Source: OCS116 cluster bacterium AG-435-F03 | GTDB taxonomy: Bacteria; Pseudomonadota; Alphaproteobacteria; MED-G09 | Direction: 5' to 3' | DNA: 64,000 bases | Assembly (NCBI GenBank): GCA_003212795.1 | Contig: QCOV01000001.1 | Location: 624,893 to 688,892 of the forward strand | Shown: piece after piece, positions 11,961 to 34,940 of the stretch | How positions within the stretch are numbered: the first letter of the stretch is position 1 | Layout of the letters: each line of letters opens with the position of its first letter | Position numbers and translations under genes: made by a program | The notes under the pieces: generated by a model | Database searches by the model: none | Seen by the model: the letters and a program-made list of their open reading frames with translations, nothing else | Told to the model about the DNA's origin: nothing

Positions 11961-13334
11961 ATGCCACACGACAAAGTAAACGAAGATACAGCTAAATGCC
12001 CTATGTCTTTAGATGAAGTAGATCTATTTGAACCTGGGGCACAAAATTTTTGGTATGACTCATATAAAATTCTTCATAAAGAATCTCCAGTACATAAAAT
12101 TCCAGGTGAAGGGACATCTCCTGATACCGATGGTTTTATATTATCCAAATACGAAGATATTGCTTTTGTTGTAAAAGACATTCTAAGATTTCCTCCTCCT
12201 GTAATGAAAAATACAGACCTTGAGAAAGCTGGCGTTAGCGGTTTTAATGCAGAAAAAGATGATATGGATAAAGAAAAATTACCTGCAAGCAGTGTAGTAA
12301 GTAGACATGATCCAAGTCTCATGAATGCATTTCAAGTTTCAATACAAAGTTTAAGGCCTAATGAAGAATTATGGAAAGCACACAAAAGACAATTAACTGA
12401 TCCTTGGGTAGGGCCTGGGGCCTACAGACATGAAAAAATGGTAACCGAGGCAACAAATAAATTAATAGATAATTGGATAAACAAGGATAAATTTGACTTT
12501 GTATCTGAGTTTGCTATGCCCTTACCTCAAATAGTCATGGCAAACATTATAGGATTCCCACTTGAAGACATTCCGTTTCATAAAAAATGGGGTGACGCTA
12601 TGGTTATGCCTTTTGTTTATGGAAAAGGACACAGAAATCTTTTAACAAAAGATCAATCTGATGAGCAACAAGTGCTTTTAAAAGATTTTGGTAATTATGT
12701 AATTGATCAATTAGAAGAAAAGAAAAAGAATCCCAAAGAAGATATGTTATCTTTCTTGTTAGATGTTACCTATGAACCCTTTGATAGAAAACTTACAGAT
12801 ACGGAAATTATTGGCGTTGCATATGCAATGATAATTGGAGGATTGGAAACAACTCAATATGCAATTGCACATCAGGCTGTTATGTTGATAGATGATCCTG
12901 ATCTATATGTTGATTTAGATAAAAATCGGGAAAAAATAAACGCTTTTGTTGAGGAATCCTTGAGAGTCAAAGCACCTACCCAGGGTCTATCAACGCGAAT
13001 GACAACTCGAGATGAGGTTTTTCAAGGAGTTGAGGTTCCTAAGGGCTCGATACTTCATCTTCGATATGGTGCAGCAAATGTAGATCCTGATACATTTGAG
13101 TGCCCTCATGAAATCAACCTTAATAGAAAAGCCCTAACTAGACACCTAACCTTTTCTCAAGGACATAGAACATGTCCTGGAAATGGAATCTCTAGGCTAG
13201 AACAAAATATAGCGTGGAATTGTCTTATGGATAGAATTGAAAAGTTTGAATATACATCAGAAACAAAAATTGAATACCAACCTGGCATCATGTTAGGTAC
13301 ATTAGAATTACTTTTAAACTTTTCAAAGAAATAG
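11961..13334 (+). CDS. cytochrome P450
   Basis: 457 aa with the heme-thiolate loop FSQGHRTCPGNGISRLE (FxxGxRxCxG) and an ESLR-type K-helix. Confidence 0.9.
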   Translation: MPHDKVNEDTAKCPMSLDEVDLFEPGAQNFWYDSYKILHKESPVHKIPGEGTSPDTDGFILSKYEDIAFVVKDILRFPPPVMKNTDLEKAGVSGFNAEKDDMDKEKLPASSVVSRHDPSLMNAFQVSIQSLRPNEELWKAHKRQLTDPWVGPGAYRHEKMVTEATNKLIDNWINKDKFDFVSEFAMPLPQIVMANIIGFPLEDIPFHKKWGDAMVMPFVYGKGHRNLLTKDQSDEQQVLLKDFGNYVIDQLEEKKKNPKEDMLSFLLDVTYEPFDRKLTDTEIIGVAYAMIIGGLETTQYAIAHQAVMLIDDPDLYVDLDKNREKINAFVEESLRVKAPTQGLSTRMTTRDEVFQGVEVPKGSILHLRYGAANVDPDTFECPHEINLNRKALTRHLTFSQGHRTCPGNGISRLEQNIAWNCLMDRIEKFEYTSETKIEYQPGIMLGTLELLLNFSKK

Positions 13335-13404
13335 TTTTCTAATGAATGTTTAAGTTTACCTTTATAAGTGATTAGTGTATTTAAAATTTATTTTAAACCT
13401 GAAT

Positions 13405-13480
13405 GCCGACTTAGCTCAACTGGTAGAGCACCTGATTTGTAATCAGGGGGTTGGGGGTTCAAGTCCCTCAGTCGGCACCA
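13405..13480 (+). tRNA. tRNA-Thr (anticodon TGT)
   Basis: gccgact/agtcggc acceptor stem, anticodon loop TTTGTAA, T-loop ttcaagt, encoded CCA. Confidence 0.9.
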
Positions 13481-13722
13481 TTCATATAATAAGATGTTTA
13501 TTTTAATTGTATTAGTTTCTTTTTTAGTTTTTTATTTTATCTTTAGTTATCTCTATAAACTCCTTAATAAAAAACAAAATAAGTCAAACACCTTAGAAGC
13601 CATTGTTTTTTATTTATTCTTTTTTAGGTTAATTTCTGTTGCATTGATGGTAGGTTTTGTTCTTTATTGGATTGCTGGTGTATTTTAGTAATTGGTGAAA
13701 ATAAAATTAATGTAAAATAATT

Positions 13723-15644: not shown

Positions 15645-15659
15645 TTTGTCCTCACAATA

Positions 15660-16856
15660 TTAGAATAATGACGGTAGTTTACTATCTTCAGTATTTATAA
15701 TTTTATCTACCCATTTGTGGAAAACTTGGCCACCACCCTCATTCCTACCAAACATAACATGGTCAATTAGACCTGTTTTTAAGCTTTTTTGTAATCTAAG
15801 ACCTGTTCCATAGTCTTCAGTTTCAACAACATATTTTAGAAGATCAAATTGTTTATGAGCTTCTTCAGCTTGTTTTTCATTCGGTTCTTTTTCCATTAAA
15901 TAAAATTGATTTGTTACTGATTCTTCAGGTCTATCTCCAGGCAATAACTGTGAAAGCATTATGCTACGCCCACCTCCATTAAAAGAAGCTATTGAAACAT
16001 GAGGAAAAATTGTCCAAACACCAGCCATTAAAACATCCAAGGGCCATTCTTCTACAGAATTTTCATAATGATCTTTTCCGTCATTATTAAAATCATTTTG
16101 TTCAGGCAGTCTATAGGGCGATATAGCTCTTTGATGGGGACCCCATTCATAGTAATTAGCTTGATTTGAGAAACTATCTCCAAAAGTATCTTTATGTAAA
16201 ACAGGGAGATGGTAAAGGTCTAAATAACCATCATATGCTACCTTCCAATTTGGACCATTCACTGATCTAGTTTCAAAAACATGCCAATTTTCTAGTCCAA
16301 AAAGAGATAACATTTTATCATATCCAGAAAGGTAGTCTTGAATATTTAAATTTGATTTAGGATCTAATGTAACCCAAATAATTCCTTCTTTCTCAAGTGA
16401 TGGTAAGGAAATCAATCCATTGCATGATTTATCTATTTCTCCAAATTCATGGGCAGATGCAACGCCCATAAGAGCGCCTTCATCATTATATGTCCAACCA
16501 TGATAAGGGCAAGAAAAGCGTTTCTGATTTCCTGTTCCCGGCTCAACTAAAGCAGCACCTCTATGTCGACATGCATTAAGAAATGCAGAAATTTTACCTT
16601 TTTTATTTCTTAAAATAATTACAGGTACACCAACAACTTCCATGGCCTTATAATCTCCAGGATTTGGAATTTCACTTGTCACGGAAAGAACTAGAGGTAA
16701 TCTTTTGAAAATTAGATCAACTTCTTTTTTCCATCTTACTGGATCATAATAATTCTCTGCTGGAATCTTAACTACATCATCAACAAGAGTCATCGTGCCT
16801 TTTTCAGCATGATCTTTGTTAATTCGGGCCATTTCAAATAATTTTTCTTTACTCAT
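15660..16856 (-). CDS. Rieske [2Fe-2S] non-heme iron oxygenase, alpha-subunit-only type (KshA/GbcA-like)
   Basis: 398 aa with Rieske motif CRHRG...CPYHGW and mononuclear iron motif NWKVAYDGYLDLYHLPVLH. No beta subunit gene follows. Confidence 0.88.
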   Translation of the reverse strand: MSKEKLFEMARINKDHAEKGTMTLVDDVVKIPAENYYDPVRWKKEVDLIFKRLPLVLSVTSEIPNPGDYKAMEVVGVPVIILRNKKGKISAFLNACRHRGAALVEPGTGNQKRFSCPYHGWTYNDEGALMGVASAHEFGEIDKSCNGLISLPSLEKEGIIWVTLDPKSNLNIQDYLSGYDKMLSLFGLENWHVFETRSVNGPNWKVAYDGYLDLYHLPVLHKDTFGDSFSNQANYYEWGPHQRAISPYRLPEQNDFNNDGKDHYENSVEEWPLDVLMAGVWTIFPHVSIASFNGGGRSIMLSQLLPGDRPEESVTNQFYLMEKEPNEKQAEEAHKQFDLLKYVVETEDYGTGLRLQKSLKTGLIDHVMFGRNEGGGQVFHKWVDKIINTEDSKLPSLF

Positions 16857-16904
16857 AATATGCTTTTAACAAAATTAAACTAAAAATTCAAAAAATATAA
16901 AAAT

Positions 16905-17684
16905 TTAAGCTCTTTTTATTGTTAAACCTCCATCAACTGGTAAAACAGCACCATTTATAAAGGAAGATGAAGGTAGACAGAAATTTAAAGTTGCATGAGC
17001 AACTTCCTCGGGCTCTCCATATCTTTTTAAGGGAACTCTCCTTTTTGCATAAACCTCTTTATCTTTTTCAGGAATTTTTTCAGTCATTCCTGTTCTTATA
17101 GGGCCTGGGCATATACAATTAATTGTAATTCCACTTGAACCTAATTCAACTGCTAAAGATTTTGTTAAACCGATAACACCATGTTTCGCTGAAGTATATG
17201 GTGATTGTCTTGGGGTTGCGCCCAATCCTTCAGTAGATGAAATATTTACAATTCGACCTGATTCCGATTTCTTAATATAAGGCAAAACTTCTCTAATCAA
17301 TTGGACTTGGGCTTTTAATAAAACATTAAATGTATTATCCCAATATTCCTCATAATTATCATCACTTATTGTTGTAGGAATTGAAATTCCAGCATTATTA
17401 ATAAGAATATCAATACCCCCAAACCTTTTGACTACCTCATTTACGGTAGATTTGATTTCATCAGAATTAGTTACATCAAGTTTAATCCCAAAACATTTTT
17501 TTCCATGACTTAAAATATCTTTAACAACTTCATTTATTTTATCTTGACTTAGATCAGTTACAATAACTTGAGCTCCTTCTTCTGAAAAAAGTTTAGCTGT
17601 AGCAAGGCCCATACCACTCGTTGCTCCAGTTATAATAGCTATCTTATTTTCAATAGATCTAGAAAGTTCAGTCAATTTATTCAT
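16905..17684 (-). CDS. SDR family oxidoreductase
   Basis: 259 aa with ITGATSGMG, NNAG and YTSAKHGV. Confidence 0.88.
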   Translation of the reverse strand: MNKLTELSRSIENKIAIITGATSGMGLATAKLFSEEGAQVIVTDLSQDKINEVVKDILSHGKKCFGIKLDVTNSDEIKSTVNEVVKRFGGIDILINNAGISIPTTISDDNYEEYWDNTFNVLLKAQVQLIREVLPYIKKSESGRIVNISSTEGLGATPRQSPYTSAKHGVIGLTKSLAVELGSSGITINCICPGPIRTGMTEKIPEKDKEVYAKRRVPLKRYGEPEEVAHATLNFCLPSSSFINGAVLPVDGGLTIKRA

Positions 17685-17773
17685 TTATCGCCAATTTTAT
17701 CTAATAATTTTAACATTATAAACATAAGACCTATAGCAACAACTAGTCCTAAAAACGCCATAAAAAAACCCAT
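17682..17773 (-). CDS. candidate 30-aa hydrophobic micro-protein (MGFFMAFLGLVVAIGLMFIMLKLLDKIGDK)
   Basis: Fills the gap between the Fe-ADH stop and the SDR start. AAGGAT SD sits 6 nt upstream of its ATG, and its stop overlaps the SDR start (gatAAATGA). A single predicted TM helix. Short AT-rich ORFs are easily spurious. Confidence 0.3.
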
Positions 17774-17776
17774 AAT

Positions 17777-18919
17777 CTATCCTTTCTCAGCAAAATCAAG
17801 TATTTGATAAACATCATCAGCTTTAGTTATTGGCTTAGGATTTGATAAAACTATCTGATGCTCGAGCGCATATTCAACTATCTTATCATATAATTCACTA
17901 CCAATACCAACATCTGCAAGTTTTGATGGCAAACCTAAATCAACGATTAATTCTTTTACAGCTTCATGTGCTTTTAAATTAGGCCTTCCTAGGGCTGATG
18001 CAATCATTTTATCTTTTTCTGGATGATGATCTTCATTCCATTTTAATACTGCAGGTAACATTACACATGAGGTTTGACCATGAGGAACAGAACCAAGAGA
18101 ACCAAGAAGATAACCTATTCCGTGACTTGCACCCATCATTACATTCCCCATATTTTTTGCAACAATCCATACTGCTTTTTGTGACTGTGAGCGTGCCTCA
18201 ATATTATTTAAATCCTTTTTTGTTTTTCGAAGTGAATTTGAAAATATTCTTAGAGCTTCTATAGCATTATGGGAAATCATTGGATTTTTAGAAATTGAAC
18301 AAAAGCCTTCAACGGCATGATCAACAGATCTAATAGCCGTAGACAACCATAACCATTCTGGAGTATGGGCAGAAATATGTGGGTCGAGAATTACAACTTT
18401 AGGACATATATCAGAACCAAAATAACCTTGTTTAAGTTTTTTTTTAGTATCCATAGCCCCTCCAACTACAGAGTACTCTCCTCCAGATAGTGTAGTTGGA
18501 ACAGCAATCTGTCTAATATTTGATGTAATATTTTGCATATTACCAGATATTTTTTTTAATTCTTCTGCACTATCAATGTCTAAAGTAATGCATAGCTGAA
18601 CAACTTTTACAGTATCTATAGGGGTTCCACCTCCAATCGTTAATATAATATCTGGATTAGCTTTTTTTACTTCTTTTGCGCATTCAAGAACATTTTCAAT
18701 TGGAGAATGCTCTTTACATCGATCAAATATCCCTACCAATTTACTTCCAAGAATATCTTTGATTTTTTCAATTTCTTTTGTCTTTTTTGATAAGGTTGAT
18801 GATGCGACAATAAAAATTTTATTAATATTCATACTCTCTATTTCTAGAGGAATTATTTCTTCCAATTTATGATCACAGTAAACTCTCTCAAGAGGAGAAT
18901 ATGAAAAGGACTGAATCAT
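17777..18919 (-). CDS. iron-containing alcohol dehydrogenase family (maleylacetate reductase-like)
   Basis: 380 aa with the Fe-ADH NAD-binding motif GGGTPIDTVK and metal-binding His residues. Confidence 0.85.
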   Translation of the reverse strand: MIQSFSYSPLERVYCDHKLEEIIPLEIESMNINKIFIVASSTLSKKTKEIEKIKDILGSKLVGIFDRCKEHSPIENVLECAKEVKKANPDIILTIGGGTPIDTVKVVQLCITLDIDSAEELKKISGNMQNITSNIRQIAVPTTLSGGEYSVVGGAMDTKKKLKQGYFGSDICPKVVILDPHISAHTPEWLWLSTAIRSVDHAVEGFCSISKNPMISHNAIEALRIFSNSLRKTKKDLNNIEARSQSQKAVWIVAKNMGNVMMGASHGIGYLLGSLGSVPHGQTSCVMLPAVLKWNEDHHPEKDKMIASALGRPNLKAHEAVKELIVDLGLPSKLADVGIGSELYDKIVEYALEHQIVLSNPKPITKADDVYQILDFAEKG

Positions 18920-19840
18920 TTATTTGTCAGATATAAAATCGGCTATTGCATCAAGTGCTTCATTAGCTTCAGGTAAAAAAGGTGCATAACCATGAAAAAC
19001 ATGCACCATATCATCCCAAACTTCTAACTTAACGTCACAACCAGATGACTCTGCGCTTTCAGCAACTTTTTTTGAATCATCTAATAAAACTTCTCTTCCC
19101 CCTACTTGGATAAGCAAGGGTGGAAAGCCTTCATAATTACCATAGACAGGTGATGCATATGGATTTATTAGATCAGATTCATCTTTGATATAAAGATCCC
19201 GAAATGCTGCTATTGCATCCTTTGAAATATATGGATCAATATCTGCATTAGTATCATAAGTTTCAGAAACAGGATCTAATTCTGCCCATGGAGATAAAGG
19301 TATTACAGCATTTGGAAGCTCAGAGTTATCATCCTTCAAAGCCAATGTAACCCCTAAGGATAAGCCTCCACCAGCCGAATCTCCGGATATATAAGATTTA
19401 GTACATTTTCCACTACCATTTGGTCCATTATTTAACATCCACAAAAAAGCTTTTTTAGAGTCATTTACTCCATGAGGAAATTTTAATTCTGGTGCTAGTG
19501 AATAATCTATTAAAAGTATAGAACATCCAGTTTTTTCGGCAATTTGGCTAGTAAGAGAGAGGTAACCTCTTATAGTTCCAATTGCATAACCACCACCATG
19601 TAAATATAAAATTCTTTTATCAGGATCTGAGTTCTCAGCCATAACCCATTGACCATAAATACCATCAACATTAACTGGAGAAGCGCTGCCAGTAGGCCTA
19701 ATACTACTATCAGCATTAAAATAATCATCAACAGTATATCTAAAGTGCTTCATCCCAAGTCTTTCATCATCTAATGAAAAGAAAGTTTTAACCAATTCTT
19801 CCTGATGTTTAATAACTAATTTATTTTGCTCTGAACTCAT
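18920..19840 (-). CDS. alpha/beta-hydrolase esterase/lipase, hormone-sensitive-lipase (HSL) family
   Basis: 306 aa with oxyanion-hole motif HGGGY and nucleophile elbow GDSAGG; Asp/His of the triad lie near the C-terminus. Confidence 0.88.
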   Translation of the reverse strand: MSSEQNKLVIKHQEELVKTFFSLDDERLGMKHFRYTVDDYFNADSSIRPTGSASPVNVDGIYGQWVMAENSDPDKRILYLHGGGYAIGTIRGYLSLTSQIAEKTGCSILLIDYSLAPELKFPHGVNDSKKAFLWMLNNGPNGSGKCTKSYISGDSAGGGLSLGVTLALKDDNSELPNAVIPLSPWAELDPVSETYDTNADIDPYISKDAIAAFRDLYIKDESDLINPYASPVYGNYEGFPPLLIQVGGREVLLDDSKKVAESAESSGCDVKLEVWDDMVHVFHGYAPFLPEANEALDAIADFISDK

Positions 19841-19856
19841 TTAAGCCCCCTTTAAT

Positions 19857-20588
19857 TTATAAACTCATACCACCATCTGATGTGATCATTTGTCCAGTTA
19901 TATAACTAGCTCCATCACTACATAAAAAACATGCGAGCTCTCCCATATCTTCAGGAGTACCCCATCTTCCTAATGGTATTCTTTTAAGTGAGTCATCATA
20001 TCTTTTCTTATTTTTAAAAGTAACCTCAGTTAATTTAGTTGCAACAAATCCTGGAGCGATACCGTTAACTCTTATATTGTTTTCAGCCCAGGCCTCTGCA
20101 AGGGTTTTAATCAAAGTGAGTAATCCACCCTTTGATGCAGAATATGCTGGATTACCTTTTACAGAATGATAGCTAGCTCCAGATCCAATAATTATTATTG
20201 ACCCATTACTTTTAGATAATTTATCTTGAAAAAAAGAACATGAGGCCATTATAGAATTTAAATTTAAATCAACCACTTTCTTAAATGTATCCATTTCAAA
20301 TTCTTTTCTTTTATATGCTACGATACCTTGAGAACAAATTAAGTGATCTAAGTCATTAAACGGTAAATCTAAATTATTTAGATTATCATGATTAGAAAGA
20401 TCCAGTTTTTGATAATTACACTTTTCTATATTTTGAGAAATTCTTTCTTCATAATCTTCAATTGAGTCTCTTGTACCTGTAATACAAACATTCGCATTAT
20501 ATTTGATAAAGCTTTCAGCAATTCCTCTTCCAATTCCACTACTGCCACCTATAACTAAGATGTTTTTATTATCAAAACCTTGAGACAT
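19857..20588 (-). CDS. SDR family oxidoreductase
   Basis: 243 aa with VIGGSSGIGRG and YSASKGG. Confidence 0.85.
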   Translation of the reverse strand: MSQGFDNKNILVIGGSSGIGRGIAESFIKYNANVCITGTRDSIEDYEERISQNIEKCNYQKLDLSNHDNLNNLDLPFNDLDHLICSQGIVAYKRKEFEMDTFKKVVDLNLNSIMASCSFFQDKLSKSNGSIIIIGSGASYHSVKGNPAYSASKGGLLTLIKTLAEAWAENNIRVNGIAPGFVATKLTEVTFKNKKRYDDSLKRIPLGRWGTPEDMGELACFLCSDGASYITGQMITSDGGMSL

Positions 20589-21367: not shown

Positions 21368-21519
21368 AATTTATCAAAGCATATTAAACAAAAGCTTAAA
21401 AGATTTATTTAGTATAAATTTGCATAATAATAATTATAAAAAAAACTTTTATAAAACTTTCAATATTGCAAGAAATATTATGCATGCTATTCTGTTTTTG
21501 GTTTTAATGAGGCTTTTAA

Positions 21520-23127: not shown

Positions 23128-23134
23128 TTATATA

Positions 23135-24163: not shown

Positions 24164-24165
24164 AA

Positions 24166-24618: not shown

Positions 24619-24648
24619 GGGTTTCTCCTAAACTAATGCTAGTTATTA

Positions 24649-26877
24649 TCAAAATGTTTGAGTAATACTTATGCCCCATGTTCTAGGCTTTCTTGCCATC
24701 CCATATGTCCATGCTGCACCAGCAAAAACATCATAACCAACAGTAAATCCATCCTCTTCAGTTATATTCTTAGCAAAGAAAGCAAAAACTGTATTATTAA
24801 ACTCATAATTCATTGATAAATCTATTAATGTTTGTTCTTTGTTGAATGTTGTTGGAGAGTTTAGCTGAGAAGTATGATGTTCACCAATATGGTGAGCGCT
24901 TGCTCTTACATAGGCTAAACCTGGACCAGCTTCCCATTCATAAGTTAAACCAAGTGTCCAAGTTAAATCTGGGGCTCTTAGAGGTTCTAAATATGTAAAA
25001 TCAGCAGGTGTTCCACTTCCTGTAAAATCAGCAAAAAATTCATCATAACTTGCATCTAAATAACCAACATTTAGGTCAACTGAAAAATTTTGATTTATAA
25101 TTGCATAAAGCTCTAACTCAATACCTTTAAATGAAGCCTCAGCAACATTATCAGTCACAGTAGCTCTTCCTATAGCGGCAAGTGTATCAGGAATATCAAC
25201 ATCCAGTTGCTTATCTTCATACTCCATGTCAAAAATTGCTAAATTAAATCTTAGTCTGTTATCAAGAAGAGTAGATTTAAGGCCAGCTTCTATATTGGTT
25301 ACAGTTTCTGGTTTATATGGCCTAACAGCACTAAATTCATTTCCCCATCTACCATTAAATCCACCACTTCGATAACCTTGAGAGTAACTTAAATAGTATA
25401 ATAAATCATCATTAGCTTGATAGCTAACAGCTACTTTTGGTGTAAATTTAGTCCAATTTTTATCAGCATAAGTATTTATAGCGCTACAATCTGGATATGG
25501 TCCAGGGCCCTGACAAGCATTACTACTTTTTTCTTCATCAATATATCTTCCGCCAACAGTGAGGGTGATTTGTTCATTTATGTCATAATCAGCCTCAAAA
25601 AATACAGCAATACTATCGGTTTCTTGATGCGTATAATTATAAATAGGAACAACTATCAAAGGGTCTTGGGTTGGCACAGCGCCAAATAAATCAAAAAATC
25701 CAATTCTACTTTCCATTGGTATTGTGTATTCGGAGTCCCATTTATAAAGTCCTACAACATAATTTAATGGGCCTTCTAAATCACTAGTAAGTCTAATTTC
25801 ATGACTTGTTTGTTCATACTCAGCATTACGGTCAGTATGATACAGTGTTAGGGGTGTTCCATCCCAATCTTGATCTACCTCTTCATCAGTAGTTTTTCTT
25901 CCCAAAATATAATCTAATTTGTATTTATCAGATAATTGCCATCTTACTTCAAGAATACCTGTAAAACTCTCAAATGAAGCATCTCGTCTTTTTGGTTCGT
26001 TATTGTATACTTTGTAACGATCACCACTTTGAGGAATTCCTAATCCAGGTGAACATTGACCATAAACTGCACACCACCATGTGGTTGATCCGCCAAGATT
26101 TAATGCTGTGTGAGCATCTTGATCTTGCTGCTCATCTGTTAAAGTTAATTCAATTTCTACATTGTCATTAACTGTAAATAGAGAATTAAAGGTAATTTGA
26201 GTGTATTCTTCTCTTCCAAGATCTTTGTTATCTACCAAATTAGTTAAATAGCCTTCAGCTTGCTCTCTATGTGTTCCAGTTATCTTAAAGGCTGCATTAG
26301 GAGTTCCAAAGTTTAGTATACCATCTACGATAGTTGTATCGTAATCGCCATAACCAACTTTGAGTTTTCCTCCAACTTCACCAGTAGGTTTTGTTCTCGT
26401 TAAATTTATTACGCCAGCAACAGTATTTCTTCCAAACAATGTTCCTTGTGGACCTCTTAATATTTCAACACTTTCTAAATCAATAGTTTTAAGCATTGCG
26501 CCAGAATTTGCTCCAACAAATACACCGTCTAAAACAACCCCTGTTGTTGGATCAAAATTTTTCTCCACATCTGAAACACCCACACCTCTGATGAATATTG
26601 CTGTTGGACTTCCTGGTCCCTGTTGAAGATCATCAATTATTAAATTTGGAGACTCACCTGCCAAATCTCTTATATCAGAAGGAAACCTATTCTCAATATC
26701 TCTTGCGCTTAAAGCGCTTACAGAAAGAGCTGTTTCTTGAATGTTCTCTTCCTTTTTACGTGCAGTAACAACAATTTCTTCTATACCTTCAGAGCTTTGA
26801 GCGAAAGATATTGAAGTATATATTGCAGATACAAATATAAAACATGAAATAGCAAAAAAGTTAAAAATAGATCTCAT
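24649..26877 (-). CDS. TonB-dependent outer-membrane receptor
   Basis: Signal peptide MRSIFNFFAISCFIFVSAIYTSISFA, TonB box EEIVVTARK, plug domain, long beta-barrel region and C-terminal Phe. The track ORF begins at a TTG 19 codons upstream; an ATG at 26877 preceded by a G-rich SD is more plausible. Confidence 0.88.
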   Translation of the reverse strand: MRSIFNFFAISCFIFVSAIYTSISFAQSSEGIEEIVVTARKKEENIQETALSVSALSARDIENRFPSDIRDLAGESPNLIIDDLQQGPGSPTAIFIRGVGVSDVEKNFDPTTGVVLDGVFVGANSGAMLKTIDLESVEILRGPQGTLFGRNTVAGVINLTRTKPTGEVGGKLKVGYGDYDTTIVDGILNFGTPNAAFKITGTHREQAEGYLTNLVDNKDLGREEYTQITFNSLFTVNDNVEIELTLTDEQQDQDAHTALNLGGSTTWWCAVYGQCSPGLGIPQSGDRYKVYNNEPKRRDASFESFTGILEVRWQLSDKYKLDYILGRKTTDEEVDQDWDGTPLTLYHTDRNAEYEQTSHEIRLTSDLEGPLNYVVGLYKWDSEYTIPMESRIGFFDLFGAVPTQDPLIVVPIYNYTHQETDSIAVFFEADYDINEQITLTVGGRYIDEEKSSNACQGPGPYPDCSAINTYADKNWTKFTPKVAVSYQANDDLLYYLSYSQGYRSGGFNGRWGNEFSAVRPYKPETVTNIEAGLKSTLLDNRLRFNLAIFDMEYEDKQLDVDIPDTLAAIGRATVTDNVAEASFKGIELELYAIINQNFSVDLNVGYLDASYDEFFADFTGSGTPADFTYLEPLRAPDLTWTLGLTYEWEAGPGLAYVRASAHHIGEHHTSQLNSPTTFNKEQTLIDLSMNYEFNNTVFAFFAKNITEEDGFTVGYDVFAGAAWTYGMARKPRTWGISITQTF

Positions 26878-26979
26878 AATTACCCCCCCAATTGATTTAA
26901 ATATTATGATAGTTGAATAAATGTTTTTTTTCAATAAATTAACAAATTAATGATTTAAATTTTAAGTTAATTAAATATC

Positions 26980-27429
26980 TTAATTACCATCAGAAAATTG
27001 TTTTTCCATGTTGTCACAAATAAGATTATAATTAAACTTAAACATGCTGACTGTTTCTTCTTTATCCTTGTCTTTAGCTTTAAAGTGACCATACCAATCA
27101 ACTTCTGTAAAATCTTGATTTGTGTTTTTAATGCTTACCGTCGAAACATAATTTTCAACAGGTAAACATGATTTATCAATAACGGAATAAGTCATGTATT
27201 TTTCTTCAATCAATCCGTCTAACCTTTCTATAACTTCACCTTGGTAAACTTTTTCAAGATAAACATACCTTACATCACCTGGTGAATTAGAAAAATTATC
27301 TGGAATTTTTACTTCTTTAATCGTTCTAGGTAGAAGCGTTTGAATTTTATCGAAAGCCCTTAATCGCTTCCAAAAATATAATTTTGGTACTTTTACTATT
27401 CTTTTAACATGCGACTGTAAAAATAACAT
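26980..27429 (-). CDS. conserved hypothetical ~150-aa protein, paralog B
   Basis: Paralog of the 24166-24618 product; see that entry. Confidence 0.6.
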   Translation of the reverse strand: MLFLQSHVKRIVKVPKLYFWKRLRAFDKIQTLLPRTIKEVKIPDNFSNSPGDVRYVYLEKVYQGEVIERLDGLIEEKYMTYSVIDKSCLPVENYVSTVSIKNTNQDFTEVDWYGHFKAKDKDKEETVSMFKFNYNLICDNMEKQFSDGN

Positions 27430-27434
27430 TAAAT

Positions 27435-27911
27435 TTACCTTAAAAGAGATCTATAGTTACTACCCCAAAAAACAAGAGGATAACCTTCAATTATTTTTGA
27501 ATCATTAACATCAGCTATCAAAATTGAGTGATCACCAGAATCGATTATTTGATTTTTTGAACAAGATAGCCAACCTATAGAATTCTTTATAACTAAACCC
27601 TGATCAATGGAAATAAACTGATCTTCGTCCAAAATATGATCATTTTTTTGCGCAAGAGTGTTTGCTATATCTCTTTGTTCTTCAGAAAGAAAATTAATTA
27701 TGTAATTATCTAAATTTGTTATTTCTTCATACAAATCTGAATCTTTATCTAAGCACCATAGAATCAAAGGTGGATCTAGTGATAATGAGGTATATGAATT
27801 TACTGTTATACCAAGATTTAAACCATTGGAACCTTTAAAGGTAACTGCTGTTACCCCAGTAGCAAACTTACTAAAAATACTTCTGAGGTCTTTATTTGCT
27901 TCATCAAGCAT
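27435..27911 (-). CDS. flavin reductase-like (FMN-binding split-barrel, HpaC/NADH:flavin oxidoreductase-like)
   Basis: 158 aa. FATGVTAVTFKGSNGLNLGITVNSYTSLSLDPPLILWCL is typical of flavin_reduct-domain proteins. Confidence 0.75.
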   Translation of the reverse strand: MLDEANKDLRSIFSKFATGVTAVTFKGSNGLNLGITVNSYTSLSLDPPLILWCLDKDSDLYEEITNLDNYIINFLSEEQRDIANTLAQKNDHILDEDQFISIDQGLVIKNSIGWLSCSKNQIIDSGDHSILIADVNDSKIIEGYPLVFWGSNYRSLLR

Positions 27912-27915
27912 TAAA

Positions 27916-29175
27916 TTATCTAATAATAACTGGAAGGTGAGAAAAACCTTTTACAAAGCTCGATCTGATTCTAATTGGTTCACCAACAACTTCTATGTTT
28001 TCAAATCTTTTCATTATTTCTTCCCACAGAATTTCTAACTGCATATCAGCTAATCTATTTCCTACACATCTATGAATTCCAAAACCATATGATAAATGGC
28101 TTCTTGGTCTTTTCCTATCAATTATAAAGCTGTTTGGGTTTTCAATTACATCTTCATCTCTGTTTCCTGACACATACCACATTACTACTTTGTCACCTTT
28201 TCTAATTAGTTTTCCTCCCAATTCATAATCTTCAAGAGCAGTTCTTCTCATGTAAGCCAGTGGTGTTTGCCATCTAATGATTTCAGGAACCATAGTTTTA
28301 ATTAAAGAATGATCTTTTCTTAATTTATCATATTGATCAGGATTTTGATTTAAGACCAAAATGCCTCCTGTCATAGAATTTCTTGTTGTATCATTACCTC
28401 CAACTATAAGTAGAATTAAATTACCTAGATACTCCATTGGATCCATATCACGTGTGCTAGGGTTGTGAGCCAGCATAGAAATTAAGTCAGTTTTAGGTTC
28501 AGAGTTAACTCTTTCATTCCATAGTTTAGTAAAATATTGAAGACATTCAAATAACTCTTCTTTTCTTTGCTCTTCTGTTTCAACTATTCCATCGCCAGGT
28601 CTAGCAGTAGAAACATCTGACCATCTTGTTAATTTCATTCTATCTTCAAAAGGAAAATCAAATAAAGTAGCTAGCATTCTTGTTGTTAATTCAATGGAGA
28701 CATCCTCTACCCAATTAAATTCTTTATTTATTGGAAGGTTATCTAAAACCTCGGCTGTTCTCTCTCTAATAAGGTCTTCCATATTAGCAAGATTACTGGG
28801 AGCAACTACAGGATTAACAGCTTTTCTTTGTATATCATGCTTAGGTGGGTCCATCGCAATAAACATAGGTGTAGTGAAATCTTCTTGAGGATCAAATAAA
28901 GTTATAGCTCCTTCTGATGAAAAAACTTTATGATTGGTATCCACACTCATTATATCTTTGTATTTAGTAATTGACCAATAAGGCCCTACATCCTCAACAC
29001 ATGATTCAGCACAATAATGAACTGGGTCCTCTTTTCTTAATCTTTCAAATAATGGAAAAATTGCATCTCCATACATAAAGATGTCAGAGTTTGCCATATC
29101 AATTTTTTCTATGGGTATTGAATAAGGATCCATTTCTGGACTCCAAACATCTGGACGAAGAAGTTCTTTAAGCAT
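27916..29175 (-). CDS. cytochrome P450, CYP153-like (alkane/alkyl hydroxylase family)
   Basis: 419 aa with heme loop FGFGIHRCVGNRLADMQLEILWEE and the N-terminal region EDPVHYCAES...GPYWSITKYKDIMSVDTNHKVFSSE, both matching CYP153 signatures as I remember them. The 3' end overlaps the upstream gene by 8 nt. Confidence 0.8.
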   Translation of the reverse strand: MLKELLRPDVWSPEMDPYSIPIEKIDMANSDIFMYGDAIFPLFERLRKEDPVHYCAESCVEDVGPYWSITKYKDIMSVDTNHKVFSSEGAITLFDPQEDFTTPMFIAMDPPKHDIQRKAVNPVVAPSNLANMEDLIRERTAEVLDNLPINKEFNWVEDVSIELTTRMLATLFDFPFEDRMKLTRWSDVSTARPGDGIVETEEQRKEELFECLQYFTKLWNERVNSEPKTDLISMLAHNPSTRDMDPMEYLGNLILLIVGGNDTTRNSMTGGILVLNQNPDQYDKLRKDHSLIKTMVPEIIRWQTPLAYMRRTALEDYELGGKLIRKGDKVVMWYVSGNRDEDVIENPNSFIIDRKRPRSHLSYGFGIHRCVGNRLADMQLEILWEEIMKRFENIEVVGEPIRIRSSFVKGFSHLPVIIR

Positions 29176-31480
29176 TATTTATAATCCCCCATACTTTTTG
29201 TGCTGTAATTGGCATATTTAGTTTCTTTGTATCAAAACCCTCTAAAGCATTTATGATTGCATTTACATAAGCAGTTGTTGAGGCAACAGTTCCAGCTTCA
29301 CCACAACCTTTAGCTCCCAATAAATTTGTTTTACACTCTGCCTCTTCATTAAAATCAATATTAAAATCAGGAAAATCATCAGCTCTTGGCATTTGATAAT
29401 CCATATAAGAACCATTTAAAAGTTGGCCAGTTTCCTCTTCATATATAGCATGTTCACACATTGCTTGACCTAAACCCTGAACGATACCTCCATGAACTTG
29501 GCCCGCAACTAAAAGAGGATTAATAATTTTTCCAAAATCGTCTGTCGCATGATAATCTATGATATCTATATTTCCTGTATCTTTATCTACCTCTACCTCA
29601 CAAATGTGGCAACCATTTGGATATGTCGGATCTTTATGTTCGTATGAACTAGCACCATCAAGCATTTGAGTATTAGATTGATTTTCTGCAATTTTAGCTA
29701 TTGAAAATAAGTCAATATTTCTGTTAGTGCCTTGTACTTGAAAAAGAGGACCAGATTCAGTTGAATACTCTATTTCGTCTATAGAAGCCTCTAATTCTGC
29801 AGCAGCAATTTCAATTCCCTTTTTCAAAACATCATCTGATGCCTCATTAATGGCACCAGCAGCAAAATACAACGATTTTGATCCACCAGTTCCACCTCCG
29901 CTTGGCAAGTCTTCACTATCACCAAAATGAATAGATACATCTTCAGGGTTAACACCTAATTTTTCAACAACAATTTGTGTCCATGCAGTCTCATGGCCTT
30001 GGCCTGTAGCCATTGTGCCGGTGTAAACATTTACCTTACCCTCACTTGAAACAATTATTCTAGAGTCTTCAGAGCCCTCTCCTTGAGTTCTCTCAACATA
30101 ATATGATACACCGATACCGCGAAGTTTATTTTCATCTATAGATTTTTTTTGTCTTTTTTCGAAATCTTCAAAAGATGAATTTAGCAGTGTCATGTTAGTA
30201 GTTTTATTAAAATCACAACTATCAAAAGGAATAACCGGGTCTGCAGTATTTCCTAAATCAGAAGGTTGAACATAATTCAATTTTCTAATTTCTATTTGTC
30301 CAAGAGACATATCGCGGGCTGCTTGATCAACCAATCTCTCAATAACATAACTTGCTTCAGGTCTACCCGCTCCTCTATAAGCATCAATAGGAACAGTATT
30401 TGTATATACAACTTTTACATTATTAACCATTACAGGAATATTATATACTCCAACATGCATTCCCGCAGCTGCAAGAGTAGGAATAAAAATACCATATTGG
30501 GATAAATAAGCTCCTACAGAAGCTGTTGTCTCCACCTTTACACCAAGAAATTTTCCTTCTTTATCTAAAGCTAAATATGCATCGGTGACATGGTCTCTAC
30601 CTTGTGCATCACTTAAAAAAGACTCTGATCTTGTTGCAGTCCATTTAACAGGTCTTGATAAAATTTTACTAGCATGCATTACAGCTATATATTCAGGAAA
30701 ACACATCATTTTTAAGCCAAATCCACCGCCTACATCTTTTGTAATAACTTGAATATCTTCTTCTTTAATATTAAGCGTATTAGCAAGCCTTTCTCTCATA
30801 GCATGAGGGCCTTGGCTTTCAACATGCATTTTAAATTTTCCATCAGTTTTATTAAATATTGATACTGCAGATCTTGGTTCGATAGGATTAACGACAATCC
30901 TATTATTAATAAGATGAACATGAGAAACATGATGTGCATCTGACTCAACTTTTTTCCATTCCTCATCCGAACCTAAACCCCAATCAACTGCACAATTAGA
31001 CTCAAATTCATCAAATAACTTAGGTGAGTCATTTTCAAGAGCTTTGGCGGTGTCAGAGTTACATGGTAACTCTTCATAATCCACTATTACATTATCAGCA
31101 GCATCGAGAGCTAAATTAACAGTTTCAGCTAGTATGAAAACAACAGGATCTCCGACATGTCTTACCCTATCTGACGCCAATATAGGTCTTTTACTAGCAT
31201 TCATAGGTGATCCATCTTTATTTTGGAGAAAATCAATTACCGACATATGTGTTATACCTGCCTCAGTGAAGGAATCATTTGTAAAAATATCAATTACACC
31301 TGGCATTTTACGAGCACTCTCAACATCAATGTTTAAAATTTTTGCATGAGAATAAGGTGATCTAACAAAAACACCATGGCACATATCTTCAAATTTTATA
31401 TCATCCGTATAATTACCTTCTCCTGTAATTAAACGCGTATCTTCAATCCTAGTAACAGGCTGTCCTACAGCAAACTTCAT
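29168..31480 (-). CDS. xanthine dehydrogenase/aldehyde oxidase/CoxL-family molybdopterin-binding large subunit
   Basis: 770 aa. N-terminus MKFAVGQPVTRIEDTRLITGEGNYTDDI...HGVFVRSPYSHAKI is characteristic of Mo-hydroxylase large subunits, and the Mo-cofactor-binding domains are present throughout. Confidence 0.88.
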   Translation of the reverse strand: MKFAVGQPVTRIEDTRLITGEGNYTDDIKFEDMCHGVFVRSPYSHAKILNIDVESARKMPGVIDIFTNDSFTEAGITHMSVIDFLQNKDGSPMNASKRPILASDRVRHVGDPVVFILAETVNLALDAADNVIVDYEELPCNSDTAKALENDSPKLFDEFESNCAVDWGLGSDEEWKKVESDAHHVSHVHLINNRIVVNPIEPRSAVSIFNKTDGKFKMHVESQGPHAMRERLANTLNIKEEDIQVITKDVGGGFGLKMMCFPEYIAVMHASKILSRPVKWTATRSESFLSDAQGRDHVTDAYLALDKEGKFLGVKVETTASVGAYLSQYGIFIPTLAAAGMHVGVYNIPVMVNNVKVVYTNTVPIDAYRGAGRPEASYVIERLVDQAARDMSLGQIEIRKLNYVQPSDLGNTADPVIPFDSCDFNKTTNMTLLNSSFEDFEKRQKKSIDENKLRGIGVSYYVERTQGEGSEDSRIIVSSEGKVNVYTGTMATGQGHETAWTQIVVEKLGVNPEDVSIHFGDSEDLPSGGGTGGSKSLYFAAGAINEASDDVLKKGIEIAAAELEASIDEIEYSTESGPLFQVQGTNRNIDLFSIAKIAENQSNTQMLDGASSYEHKDPTYPNGCHICEVEVDKDTGNIDIIDYHATDDFGKIINPLLVAGQVHGGIVQGLGQAMCEHAIYEEETGQLLNGSYMDYQMPRADDFPDFNIDFNEEAECKTNLLGAKGCGEAGTVASTTAYVNAIINALEGFDTKKLNMPITAQKVWGIINNA

Positions 31481-31492
31481 TATTTCTCCTAT

Positions 31493-32248
31493 TTAATTTT
31501 TATAACTGGGGTCAATTTTATCTAATTTCCTTAAAAGACCAGGCCACGCAAGTTGGCCTATTCCATCATCAGATGCCATTTGACCTTGTTCAGTAACTAA
31601 TTCAATAACATCAGTTGGAACTTGATTAAGTTTTAAACCACCAGTTAAGGCTTTAATTTGCATGGTGCAGGCTCTTTCAAGAAAAAATAAACGAAGCCAT
31701 GCATCTCCACAAGTAGCACCTGTTGTTAACAAACCATGATTTTTTAAAATTAAACAATGCTTATCCCCAAGATCATTAATCAATCTCTCTCTTTCATCTA
31801 AATTAAGAGCGATACCTTCATAATCATGATATGCACAATCATTTCTTATAACCATTGCATGTTGACTTATAGGCATAAGACCATCTTCTTGTGCCGCAAC
31901 AGCCACTCCATCATTTGAATGCGTATGAATTACAGCATGATTATTTGTTCCTGAGGAATGAACTGCTGAATGAATAGTGAAACCAGCAGCATTAACATTA
32001 TAATTTGTTTCAGAAACCTTATTTCCATCAAGATCAATTTTGACCAGATCAGATGCACAAATTTCGTCAAATAATAAACCATATGGATTAAGTAAGAAGT
32101 GTTCAGGTTCTGAGGGAACACGAACAGATATATGGGTAAAAACAAGATCATCCCAACCATATAAAGCTACTAACCTATATAAAGCTGCAAGCTCTACTCT
32201 TGCGCTCCATTCCTCTTCACTTACTGATTCTCTAATTTGTTTATTCAT
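31493..32248 (-). CDS. class II aldolase/adducin-domain protein
   Basis: 251 aa with metal-binding His cluster (HTHSNDGVAVAAQ...HAMVIRND). Size and pattern fit the FucA/AraD fold. Confidence 0.65.
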   Translation of the reverse strand: MNKQIRESVSEEEWSARVELAALYRLVALYGWDDLVFTHISVRVPSEPEHFLLNPYGLLFDEICASDLVKIDLDGNKVSETNYNVNAAGFTIHSAVHSSGTNNHAVIHTHSNDGVAVAAQEDGLMPISQHAMVIRNDCAYHDYEGIALNLDERERLINDLGDKHCLILKNHGLLTTGATCGDAWLRLFFLERACTMQIKALTGGLKLNQVPTDVIELVTEQGQMASDDGIGQLAWPGLLRKLDKIDPSYKN

Positions 32249-32295
32249 AATCCAATATTACAATCTTTATAAATATAAAACCAGCATTATTAGAA

Positions 32296-33771
32296 TTAGA
32301 CATTGATGATTTTATTTATTGCTTTATTCCAATTTTTTATTATTTCTTCTCTTGTTTGATTTTCCATTTGTGGCAGAAATTCCTTATTTTTATATAAATT
32401 AACATTAAATTCTTTTAAATCATTAATTTCTTGAGAGCCAAGAGCTGATAATGAAGCCGCGCCCAATGCAGTCGCTTCTTGTTCATTTGATTTACTTATT
32501 TTTATGTCACAAATATCAGAGAGATTCTGCATAAACCAGTCATTTTCTGTCATACCTCCATCAACTCTGATACTATTAAGGGGGTTCTCAAATAATTTTT
32601 TAGTATCCTCATTTATGGCATTCATAAGATCATACGTTTGTAAAGAAATAGACTGAACTGATGAGGCTATTATCTCATTTTTGTTGGAATCACGCGTTAA
32701 ACCTGAAATAGTTGCCCGACTATTTGGTTGCCAATGTGGTGCACCTAAACCAGTAAAAGCAGGTACCATTACAATCTCACTATTAATGGAAGTATTTTTA
32801 AGTATATCTTCTAATTCATTAATATTATCAAATACTTGTAGATTATTCTTTAACCAATCTATAATAGCACCAGCCATGAAAATAGAACCCTCAAGAGCAT
32901 AAGCTATCTCTCCATTAATTTTATATGCTACGGTCGATAAAAGGCCATTTTTAGAATATGCAATATTTTTACCTGTATTTAATAAAACAAAGCATCCAGT
33001 ACCATAAGTTGACTTAATATCTCCAAAATTAAAGCATTTTTGTCCAATTGCAGCTGATTGTTGATCTCCTATAACACCATAAATTGGTAATTTCTTTATG
33101 AGAGCCTCTGATTGTCCATAAAAAGCATCAGATTCCAGAACTTCCGGAAGTATTGATTTATTCACTTGAAAAAGATTCAATAAATCATCATCCCATTTTA
33201 ATTCTTCAATATTAAAAAGATTTGTTCTAGCTGCATTTGTAATATCAGTAGCAAAAACTTTACCTTTTGTAAGATGCCAAATAATCCATGAATCTATTGT
33301 TCCTGCACATACTCTATCTTGATTTATGCTTTCTTTAACGCCATCAACATTATTTATTATCCAGGATATCTTAGTTGATGAAAAATACGGGTCTAATAAT
33401 AATCCTGTTTTATTGATAATTAATTCTTCGTAGCCTTTTTCTTTTAAATCTCTACATAAACTCTCTGTTCTTCTGTCTTGCCATACTATTGCGTTATATA
33501 AAGATTTACCGGTTTGTTTATCCCATACAACTACAGTTTCTCTTTGATTAGTAATACCAATTGAACAAATATTATGATTAGGATTATTTTCTATAATTTC
33601 ATTACAACAACTTATAACAGTTCCAATAATCTCTTCGGGATTATGCTCAACCCAACCATTATTAGGGAATACTTGTTCAAAAGATTTCTGACTAGAATCA
33701 ACTTTTTTTCCGTTTAAGTCAAAAAGCATTACTTTTGTAGATGTGGTACCTTGGTCAATTATAAGAAACAT
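32296..33771 (-). CDS. glpK: glycerol kinase (FGGY family)
   Basis: 491 aa colinear with GlpK over its whole length (IIDQGTTSTKVMLFD, GITNQRETVVVWDKQTGKSLYNAIVWQDRRT, TYGTGCF, PAFTGLGAPHW, VDGGMT). Confidence 0.88.
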   Translation of the reverse strand: MFLIIDQGTTSTKVMLFDLNGKKVDSSQKSFEQVFPNNGWVEHNPEEIIGTVISCCNEIIENNPNHNICSIGITNQRETVVVWDKQTGKSLYNAIVWQDRRTESLCRDLKEKGYEELIINKTGLLLDPYFSSTKISWIINNVDGVKESINQDRVCAGTIDSWIIWHLTKGKVFATDITNAARTNLFNIEELKWDDDLLNLFQVNKSILPEVLESDAFYGQSEALIKKLPIYGVIGDQQSAAIGQKCFNFGDIKSTYGTGCFVLLNTGKNIAYSKNGLLSTVAYKINGEIAYALEGSIFMAGAIIDWLKNNLQVFDNINELEDILKNTSINSEIVMVPAFTGLGAPHWQPNSRATISGLTRDSNKNEIIASSVQSISLQTYDLMNAINEDTKKLFENPLNSIRVDGGMTENDWFMQNLSDICDIKISKSNEQEATALGAASLSALGSQEINDLKEFNVNLYKNKEFLPQMENQTREEIIKNWNKAINKIINV

Positions 33772-33773
33772 TT

Positions 33774-34940
33774 TTATTTATGAGAAACAGGAAGTTTTTT
33801 TCTACCCCAAAAAAGAAAGGGGCCTACCCTTTCGCCATCATTAATTAATTTTAAATTAGGAAATCTCTTTTTTAATGCATTAAGAGTAACCTTTGTCTCT
33901 AACCTTGCAAGCTCTCTACCTAAGCAAATGTGAACACCTACACTAAAAGAAATTACTTTACTACCATCTCTAGTCAAATCGAATGTATTTGGATTATCAA
34001 AAATTACAGGATCTCTATTTGCTGCACCATAATGCATCATCACTTTTGAGTTTTTTGGAATTATATTTCCTTCAATATTTACTTCTTTAGAAGTAGTTTT
34101 AAATAATCCTAAAAGAGGTGGATCGTAGCGTAGACTCTCATTTATAGCATTATTGATATCAATTTTATTGCTTACAAAATCTTCCCATAAATTATCTACA
34201 GTCATCATTCTCCATACTAAATTAGAAATCAAAGAAGTAGTTGTCTCATTACCTGCAACAAAAATTTGTATAGTTAAGTTTACAGCTTCATCATTAGATA
34301 AATATTTTGACTTAAGTTTTGCATGAGCAATCCTTGATAAAAGAGTGCTATCTTCTTCTTCTTCTCTTTTTTTTAGTATGAGATCCAATAGATAATCTCT
34401 CATTTGACTCAATTCTTTTTCAAATTTCTGGGGGTCTTCACTACACATTTGTTCCACCGTAGCATCTGCCCAACGCTTAAATTTATGAATGTCATCAATT
34501 GGAATACCTAATATCTCGCAAATAATTATTACTGGTAGTGGAAATGATAAGTTATCATGAATATCCCAAATATCTTTTCCCATAACATCATCAAGGAGTT
34601 CCTCTGCGATTTCTTCTAATCTCTCTTCTAATTTAGCAATTGATCCCATTAAAAAATTCGGTTGTACAATTCTTCTAATCAATGTGTGATGCTCTCCGTC
34701 AGAAAGCACACCATTAGAAGAATCTATAAAGTTAGGTCCATTACCATGACCCTCAATGAAAATATCAGGCTCTCTTAAGGCATAACTAATATCTTCATAT
34801 CTTGATAGTATGTAAAATGGAGGGTCGTACAAATCATAATGGTAGACTCTATTTCCATTTAATAATTTTGAAGCGGATATAGATGGGTCATACATCTCAT
34901 CCTGACTCATTAAATTAACCTTACTGTTGTCTGAATTCAT
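33774..34940 (-). CDS. cytochrome P450
   Basis: 388 aa with heme loop FSVGVHICLGRELARLE and an ETLR-type K-helix (NESLR). Confidence 0.85.
   Translation of the reverse strand: MNSDNSKVNLMSQDEMYDPSISASKLLNGNRVYHYDLYDPPFYILSRYEDISYALREPDIFIEGHGNGPNFIDSSNGVLSDGEHHTLIRRIVQPNFLMGSIAKLEERLEEIAEELLDDVMGKDIWDIHDNLSFPLPVIIICEILGIPIDDIHKFKRWADATVEQMCSEDPQKFEKELSQMRDYLLDLILKKREEEEDSTLLSRIAHAKLKSKYLSNDEAVNLTIQIFVAGNETTTSLISNLVWRMMTVDNLWEDFVSNKIDINNAINESLRYDPPLLGLFKTTSKEVNIEGNIIPKNSKVMMHYGAANRDPVIFDNPNTFDLTRDGSKVISFSVGVHICLGRELARLETKVTLNALKKRFPNLKLINDGERVGPFLFWGRKKLPVSHK

Follow-up and report, generated by a model that had tools for sequence, protein, structure and literature searches.

Three class I cytochrome P450s without neighboring redox-partner genes, and a flavin reductase linked to CYP153, in a marine OCS116-type alphaproteobacterium

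The 64,000-nucleotide stretch analyzed here (the window; G+C ∼33%) belongs to contig QCOV01000001.1 of OCS116 cluster bacterium AG-435-F03 and carries three cytochrome P450 genes, the middle one of which, a CYP153, lies between the genes for a molybdenum hydroxylase large subunit (Mo subunit) and a PF01613-type flavin reductase (FR). A Pfam scan of all non-overlapped open reading frames (ORFs) of the window found the P450 domain in exactly three, at the positions where an earlier note, made from the letters alone, had placed three P450s. The scan and the junction sequence likewise bore out that note's PF01613-like gene just downstream of CYP153. The five genes chiefly at issue are these:

11961-13334, plus strand: class I P450 (457 aa), BioI/CYP106-like, downstream of an acyl-CoA synthetase gene (Pfam p450, PDB)
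27435-27911, minus strand: FR, PF01613 NAD(P)H:flavin reductase-like protein (158 aa; Pfam E 5e-26)
27916-29175, minus strand: CYP153A-type class I P450 (419 aa; Pfam p450, PDB, motifs)
29168-31480, minus strand: molybdenum hydroxylase large subunit, CoxL/XdhA-like (770 aa; Pfam Ald_Xan_dh_C, MoCoBD_1, MoCoBD_2)
33774-34940, minus strand: class I P450 “P450c” (388 aa), CYP107/CYP109-like, first gene of a minus-strand operon (Pfam, PDB)

CYP153 and FR are separated by a gap of 4 nt (stop TAA, ttta, start ATG), and the 3′ end of the Mo-subunit gene overlaps the CYP153 start by 8 nt. The 21 kb around CYP153 are 99.98% identical to contig CACEGK010000002.1 of a single-cell genome (GCA_902559135.1), and ten independent contigs encoding an identical CYP153 share the same arrangement, so the gene order is real. 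Genomes of the nearest species carry the labels Rhodobiaceae bacterium, OCS116 cluster bacterium, and Hyphomicrobiales bacterium.

The middle P450 is unambiguously classified as a CYP153A. Its best PDB matches, 7ANT (E 3e-182), 6HQG, and CYP153A7 (3RWL; 596 bits, E 5e-178), were full-length; it has the motifs MFIAMDPPKHD, GGNDTTRN, and FGxGxHRCxGNRLA, and FGIHRCVGNRLA and GGNDTTRN align with CYP153A7, so that both the Cys-ligand heme loop and the I-helix oxygen-activation motif are present. Under the nomenclature rule that places P450s with >40% identity in one family and those with >55% in one subfamily, its identity is 63–96% to the CYP153 genes of 80 species genomes and 63–71% to homologues of Caulobacter, Phenylobacterium, and HTCC2143. 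The activity predicted from the family is hydroxylation at the terminal position of alkanes or alkyl chains. P450c, which is restricted to the window lineage and one further locus (L013), matched P450 EryF, Vdh, PikC, and YjiB in the PDB (E about 1e-46), and the first P450 matched BioI (2e-37) and CYP106. Because these two resemble EryF, Vdh, and PikC, and BioI and CYP106, respectively, we class them as ordinary, partner-dependent class I enzymes; partner-independent types (CYP152 peroxygenase, CYP74-like) were rejected, the nearest solved relatives all being partner-dependent. No fused reductase, ferredoxin, or flavodoxin domain was found in any of the three (388–457 aa, P450 domain alone), and they are thus not self-sufficient.

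Genes for such partners were not detected beside them. The Pfam scan found no ferredoxin, ferredoxin or flavodoxin reductase, flavodoxin, or AraC regulator in the 64 kb; window ORFs of at least 45 aa contain no 2Fe-2S or 4Fe-4S cysteine motif; and E. coli Fdx, a CYP153-linked ferredoxin, and HcaD, used as phmmer queries, gave no match in the window. Nor does the window hold a canonical fdx-CYP153-fdr operon with an AraC regulator. The absence of ferredoxin, ferredoxin reductase, and AraC genes near the P450s, which the earlier note had read from the sequence, thus extends over the whole 64 kb. Two small ORFs were tried as missed electron carriers and rejected: a 149-aa ORF following FR, considered as an Fe-S subunit, is a paralogue of an SRPBCC protein, and a 64-aa ORF at 13494-13688 (plus strand), considered as a small 3Fe-4S ferredoxin, is hydrophobic and cysteine-free, with no Pfam match. 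The latter ORF, very hydrophobic and without a family match, lies between the first P450 and a short-chain dehydrogenase/reductase (SDR) gene and may or may not be a genuine gene.

A suitable pair of genes does lie just past the right end of the window. The flank was found through contigs that encode exactly the AAA ATPase closing the window and whose DNA is 98.9–99.6% identical to the window’s right end. Beyond the ATPase the order is VWA_CoxE, an 84-aa ORF, and then, on the minus strand, a ferredoxin-NADP reductase (FNR) and a ferredoxin:

62729-63580, plus strand: CoxD/MoxR-like AAA ATPase, last gene of the window, used as landmark (Pfam)
65019-66047 (window-equivalent positions, outside the window), minus strand: FNR, Pyr_redox_2 (342 aa; Pfam; PDB 5YGQ, 2ZBW)
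66049-66369 (window-equivalent positions, outside the window), minus strand: [2Fe-2S] ferredoxin, Fer2 (106 aa; Pfam; PDB)

A class I system uses a [2Fe-2S] ferredoxin of the vertebrate type with an NAD(P)H-ferredoxin reductase, and genes for both are therefore present 1.0–2.4 kb beyond the window, some 36 kb away from CYP153. The pair was found in six of six places among the matches listed (6 of 23), one of them a second single-cell genome. Nearest solved relatives of the ferredoxin are R. capsulatus FdVI (1E9M), 3HUI, terpredoxin, putidaredoxin, Arx (3LXF), and adrenodoxin, with 4LTU also among the matches, and we assign it to the putidaredoxin/FdVI/PuxB type, the vertebrate-type class that serves P450s. 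It is 50–59% identical to CYP153-flanking ferredoxins of 12 other taxa, compared with 37% to E. coli ISC Fdx. The FNR matched R. palustris FNR (5YGQ, E 2e-140) and T. thermophilus 2ZBW (E 8e-72) in the PDB and is typed as a ferredoxin-NADP reductase of the thioredoxin-reductase (TrxR) kind. This kind of FNR has a P450 precedent: PMC10526003 cites 2ZBW alongside a paper on the native electron chain of CYP175A1 (see also PMC5015936). A sister lineage keeps the pair together with its neighbors, its ferredoxin being 89% identical, and across OCS116-like lineages the ferredoxin is 82–98% identical, vs. 41–61% for FR.

Lack of an adjacent partner is the rule for this CYP153 subclade. We sampled the 80 closest CYP153 loci of species-representative genomes (63–96% identity) with 10 kb on either side: a putidaredoxin-type ferredoxin occurred within 10 kb in 12 of them, adjoining the P450 in about ten. 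No HcaD/PdR-type reductase turned up at any of these loci, even in an unfiltered search that admitted matches up to E 5. The expectation voiced in the earlier note, that CYP153 normally comes with a ferredoxin, its reductase, and an AraC regulator, does not hold for these closest relatives. None of the 73 loci from outside OCS116 has an FR within 10 kb and most have no adjacent partner, so this type of enzyme works with partners supplied in trans.

On balance we favor an account in which the three P450s would be ordinary class I enzymes without dedicated partner genes, supplied with electrons in trans by two conserved core-genome proteins, the 106-aa ferredoxin and the 342-aa FNR, along a path from NADPH to FNR (FAD), to ferredoxin ([2Fe-2S]), and to the P450 heme. 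FR would be an NAD(P)H:flavin oxidoreductase of the conventional kind within the operon of Mo subunit, CYP153, and FR, most likely feeding reduced flavin to a flavin-dependent enzyme, for which the candidate in one sister lineage is a luciferase-like monooxygenase next to CYP153. Supply in trans from the nearby pair is probably the best explanation of the missing partners, and from their types the pair is predicted to reduce these P450s; for FR, supply of reduced flavin is the putative function. The earlier note had offered two alternatives, partners in trans or FR as an unconventional P450 partner. The first is supported by the ferredoxin and FNR genes just past the window, kept in a sister lineage, and the second was neither borne out nor refuted.

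Several observations weigh against the favored account, and some of them would speak instead for other partners in trans, such as a PdR-type reductase and a different ferredoxin, or a flavodoxin, from genes in other parts of the genome, with the FdVI-type ferredoxin and FNR serving only housekeeping such as Fe-S assembly. The pair looks housekeeping: its ferredoxin is highly conserved and has the core genes recA, dksA, and alaS among its neighbors. The part of the genome inspected amounts to about 74 kb (the window plus 10 kb), and further ferredoxin or reductase genes may lie elsewhere. Moreover, the R. palustris homologue of this FNR, RPA3954, shows low in vitro reactivity toward RPA3956, the 2Fe-2S ferredoxin encoded nearby (PMC9137726). 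The ferredoxin here nevertheless falls in the same family as CYP153-adjacent ferredoxins, at the 50–59% identity given above, and we regard recruitment of other partners as unlikely. Streamlined low-GC genomes, besides, tend to share few redox carriers.

The remaining objections concern FR itself. Its Flavin_Reduct domain is full-length, with FATGV, G-x-T-x-NS, and GDH motifs that are invariant, outgroups included, and its best PDB matches were 3RH7, PheA2 (1RZ0), and the HPAH reductase component. Among solved structures and curated families, its nearest relatives all serve two-component flavin monooxygenases as the reductase component (PheA2, HPAH C1, SgcE6, DszD, StyB, HpaC, and FerA). The best NCBIfam matches, FerA, StyB, and HpaC, were all below cutoff, and FR belongs to none of the curated equivalogs FerA, StyB, HpaC, HsaB, and RutF, scoring 46–103 bits vs. 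cutoffs of 200–340. By this kinship FR would group with hydride-transfer, free-flavin reductases, not with one-electron carriers.

FR orthologues (at least 45% identity) form a discrete clade. FR directly follows CYP153 wherever upstream DNA was visible, that is, in the window and L011–L020 (11 of 11 genome or long-contig loci) and in all 25 informative metagenome loci, so the conserved CYP153 and flavin-reductase pair that the earlier note had proposed to look for does exist, limited to the OCS116 family. The order Mo subunit, CYP153, FR is invariant across the family and absent elsewhere, and around this core the presence of the downstream neighbors, of P450c, and of the luciferase-like monooxygenase varies. 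Outgroup FRs (≤42% identity) had no CYP153 beside them in 52 loci, and the three inspected stand alone beside motAB/exbBD-like genes; a P450 linkage of the outgroups was rejected, the one convergent distant P450 in the 52 loci (L151) being taken as chance. FR is under purifying selection (dN/dS 0.11 vs. L015) in a lineage without the luciferase-like monooxygenase at the locus. Kept in this way and fixed beside CYP153 family-wide, FR therefore has an operon-specific role that the favored account leaves unexplained, and both observations count against it.

FR and CYP153 differ in their rates of change. The 41–61% identity of FR across lineages compares with 78–82% for CYP153, and the amino-acid distance (dN) of FR is 3–6 times that of CYP153. 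Between L019 (FR at 11285-11770) and L020 (FR at 11271-11759), FR is 48%, CYP153 91%, and the Mo subunit 85% identical, which reflects either unusually rapid FR evolution in this branch or replacement of the FR allele. Between L016 and L017, CYP153 (10001-11260 and 9989-11251, respectively) is 82% identical with a synonymous distance (dS) of about 2.2, and its flanks show 97.5% identity for the Mo subunit and 90% for FR, both with dS of 0.16–0.17. This pattern suggests that recombination between OCS116 lineages replaced CYP153 by itself; with the allele swapped and the flanks unchanged, FR did not travel with CYP153.

These data bear on whether FR might be a dedicated, unconventional CYP153 reductase, passing NAD(P)H electrons to the heme through bound or free reduced flavin in place of ferredoxin and ferredoxin reductase. 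The 4-nt gap makes co-transcription near-certain; the adjacency is invariant across the family even as FR identity falls to 41–46% and other neighbors vary; orthologues occur only beside CYP153, with the outgroup FRs standing alone; and purifying selection acts on FR where no luciferase-like monooxygenase is at hand. The invariant core, the locus-restricted orthologues, and this retention without a nearby flavin monooxygenase favor some operon-specific role for FR. A suitable ferredoxin and FNR are nevertheless nearby, and the closest CYP153 loci outside OCS116 do without FR. The Mo subunit is as constant a neighbor as the P450, so adjacency does not single out CYP153. Searches of the accessible literature returned no relevant report of a CYP153 or other P450 served by a flavin reductase, or of OCS116 P450s, and we know of no P450 served by a PF01613-type flavin reductase. 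This lack of precedent, the rapid evolution of FR, its staying behind in the CYP153 swap, and its free-flavin relatives argue against FR as a specific docking partner of the P450. Isoelectric points, computed as a docking clue, did not discriminate, all proteins of the organism being acidic. A dedicated CYP153 reductase is in our judgment improbable, as is any link by which FR would feed the P450.

It is likewise improbable that CYP153 is served by the translationally coupled FR alone, or by a relay of Mo hydroxylase, FR, and P450 that would recycle electrons from aldehyde oxidation, although the strict gene order, the locus-restricted FR orthologues, and the purifying selection on FR in the absence of a local flavin monooxygenase are compatible with either. 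That FR instead partners the lone Mo hydroxylase large subunit, accepting or donating electrons at the flavin level and perhaps tying aldehyde oxidation into the pathway, with CYP153 merely in between, is very unlikely. In its favor, the Mo subunit is as invariant a neighbor, in the same order in all informative loci, its ORF overlaps that of CYP153, and CoxS/CoxM-type genes are missing from the window. Known members of the xanthine oxidase/carbon monoxide dehydrogenase (CODH) family, however, depend on a [2Fe-2S] subunit to lead electrons away from the Mo cofactor, a part that a PF01613 protein cannot take, and Parvibaculum has a module of aldolase and Mo subunit without any FR.

Under the favored account FR would serve a flavin-dependent enzyme, and a luciferase-like monooxygenase is the textbook client for a PF01613-type reductase. 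One of 417 aa lies between the Mo subunit and CYP153, two genes upstream of FR in the same operon, in L011 (7498-8751), L012, L016–L018, L119, and L120, a sublineage of slightly higher G+C. It is present at 2 of the 18 metagenome loci with a visible junction of Mo subunit and CYP153 and absent at the other 16. It is also absent at the locus in the window, L013–L015, L019, and L020, and no cognate oxygenase (luciferase-like, HpaB, StyA, or halogenase-type) was found in the window. Among its best 120 database homologues, low-GC composition is confined to the sublineage’s own (92–97% identity), the others (≤80%) coming from Parvibaculum and other higher-GC bacteria, so the window lineage probably lacks this monooxygenase altogether. 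Its absence from these loci and its confinement to one sublineage both tell against the favored account, and the proposal that FR exists solely for an adjacent luciferase-like monooxygenase is weakened by the same observations. The possibility raised in the earlier note, that FR belongs to a two-component flavin monooxygenase, accordingly finds support in one sublineage, where the monooxygenase stands beside CYP153, and none in the window or most family members.

The luciferase-like monooxygenase is 75–80% identical to homologues of Parvibaculum and Rhizomicrobium, and it divergently adjoins CYP153 in three Caulobacteraceae loci (L058, L072, and L089). The Parvibaculum locus runs from aldolase through Mo subunit, TetR, an unannotated gene, and SDR to luciferase-like monooxygenase, with neither CYP153 nor FR.

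The minus-strand operon is tightly packed and has the order P450c, FGGY kinase, class II aldolase, Mo subunit, CYP153, FR, SRPBCC protein, TonB-dependent receptor, SRPBCC protein, and APH-type kinase. Besides the genes listed above it includes:

24166-24618, minus strand: SRPBCC protein (Polyketide_cyc2; Pfam)
24649-26934, minus strand: TonB-dependent receptor (Pfam)
26980-27429, minus strand: SRPBCC-type small protein (149 aa), 5 nt after FR (without Pfam match; paralogue comparison)
31493-32248, minus strand: class II aldolase (Pfam)
32296-33771, minus strand: FGGY kinase (Pfam)

The kinase and aldolase sit between P450c and the Mo subunit. The aldolase always precedes the Mo subunit, as it does in Parvibaculum (L106, 985-4197), and the Mo subunit, whose best NCBIfam match (glyceraldehyde dehydrogenase alpha) was below cutoff, is always upstream of CYP153 in the OCS116 family. 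CoxS/CoxM-type genes for its [2Fe-2S] small and FAD medium subunits were not found in the 64 kb, and it is the second enzyme at the locus without electron-transfer partners. The CoxD/MoxR-like AAA ATPase and VWA_CoxE (L099, 10855-12294), maturation factors of Mo-Cu CODH-type enzymes, adjoin the ferredoxin and FNR genes, far from this sole Mo-hydroxylase gene seen. The Rieske non-heme iron oxygenase alpha subunit at 15660-16856 (minus strand; GbcA/anthranilate dioxygenase-like) makes a third orphan redox enzyme of the region, beside the P450s and the Mo subunit, with no gene in its vicinity for a beta subunit, a ferredoxin, or a reductase.

The two SRPBCC (START/Bet v1-like) paralogues, which are 52% identical, flank the TonB-dependent receptor, and together the three suggest that some hydrophobic substrate is imported or handled. 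The presence of the receptor and SRPBCC genes downstream of FR differs among relatives, the receptor being absent in L014, L015, L019, and L020. Further along the window, 16905-23127 encodes a monooxygenase of the Baeyer-Villiger (BVMO) or flavin-containing (FMO) type (21520-23127), an Abhydrolase_3 esterase, three SDRs, and an iron-dependent alcohol dehydrogenase (ADH). This stretch is syntenic throughout the OCS116 family and fits a subterminal (ketone to ester) oxidation route; BVMO, esterase, ADH, SDR, and acyl-CoA synthetase neighbors are compatible with oxidation of lipids or hydrocarbons.

If the favored account holds, the window displays routine orphan class I P450s that share a core ferredoxin and reductase pair, an ordinary arrangement in an under-studied marine lineage, apart from the conserved linkage of CYP153 to FR. 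It also cautions that absence from a window is not absence from a genome, and that members of this CYP153 subclade do not as a rule come in an fdx-CYP153-fdr operon. OCS116-type bacteria, abundant in ocean metagenomes, carry a conserved CYP153-centered locus with a putative role in lipid or hydrocarbon oxidation, and the ferredoxin, FNR, and FR are concrete candidates for reconstituting a marine CYP153. Should FR after all feed the P450, it would represent a new class of redox partner of biocatalytic interest and an undescribed way to reduce a bacterial P450.

Among known systems, the two-component flavin monooxygenases (HpaBC, PheA1A2, StyAB, and luciferase-like monooxygenase with reductase) include the best relatives of FR, and one OCS116 sublineage has a luciferase-like monooxygenase; in the window and most family members, in contrast, no oxygenase component is present at the locus and the invariant neighbor of FR is a P450. 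With the CYP153A alkane/terminal hydroxylase systems (CYP153A7 of Sphingopyxis, CYP153A6, and CYP153A33), which combine a class I P450, a [2Fe-2S] ferredoxin, and an FAD reductase, the region shares a clear CYP153A and a putidaredoxin-type ferredoxin from the family of CYP153-adjacent ferredoxins. It differs from them in having neither an fdx-CYP153-fdr operon nor an AraC regulator, CYP153 lying instead between the Mo subunit and FR. A similar layout is found in systems with shared partners, ArR/Arx of Novosphingobium aromaticivorans and PuR/Pux/PuxB of Rhodopseudomonas palustris, in which several P450s without adjacent partners draw on one pair elsewhere on the chromosome, and Arx (3LXF) and the R. 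palustris ferredoxins 3HUI and 4LTU are among the PDB matches of the ferredoxin here. The P450 systems of both organisms use PdR-type reductases, and partner use in OCS116 is, unlike theirs, a prediction from sequence. The ferredoxin and TrxR-type FNR that serve CYP175A1 in Thermus thermophilus show the same layout, and 2ZBW is among the PDB matches of the FNR.

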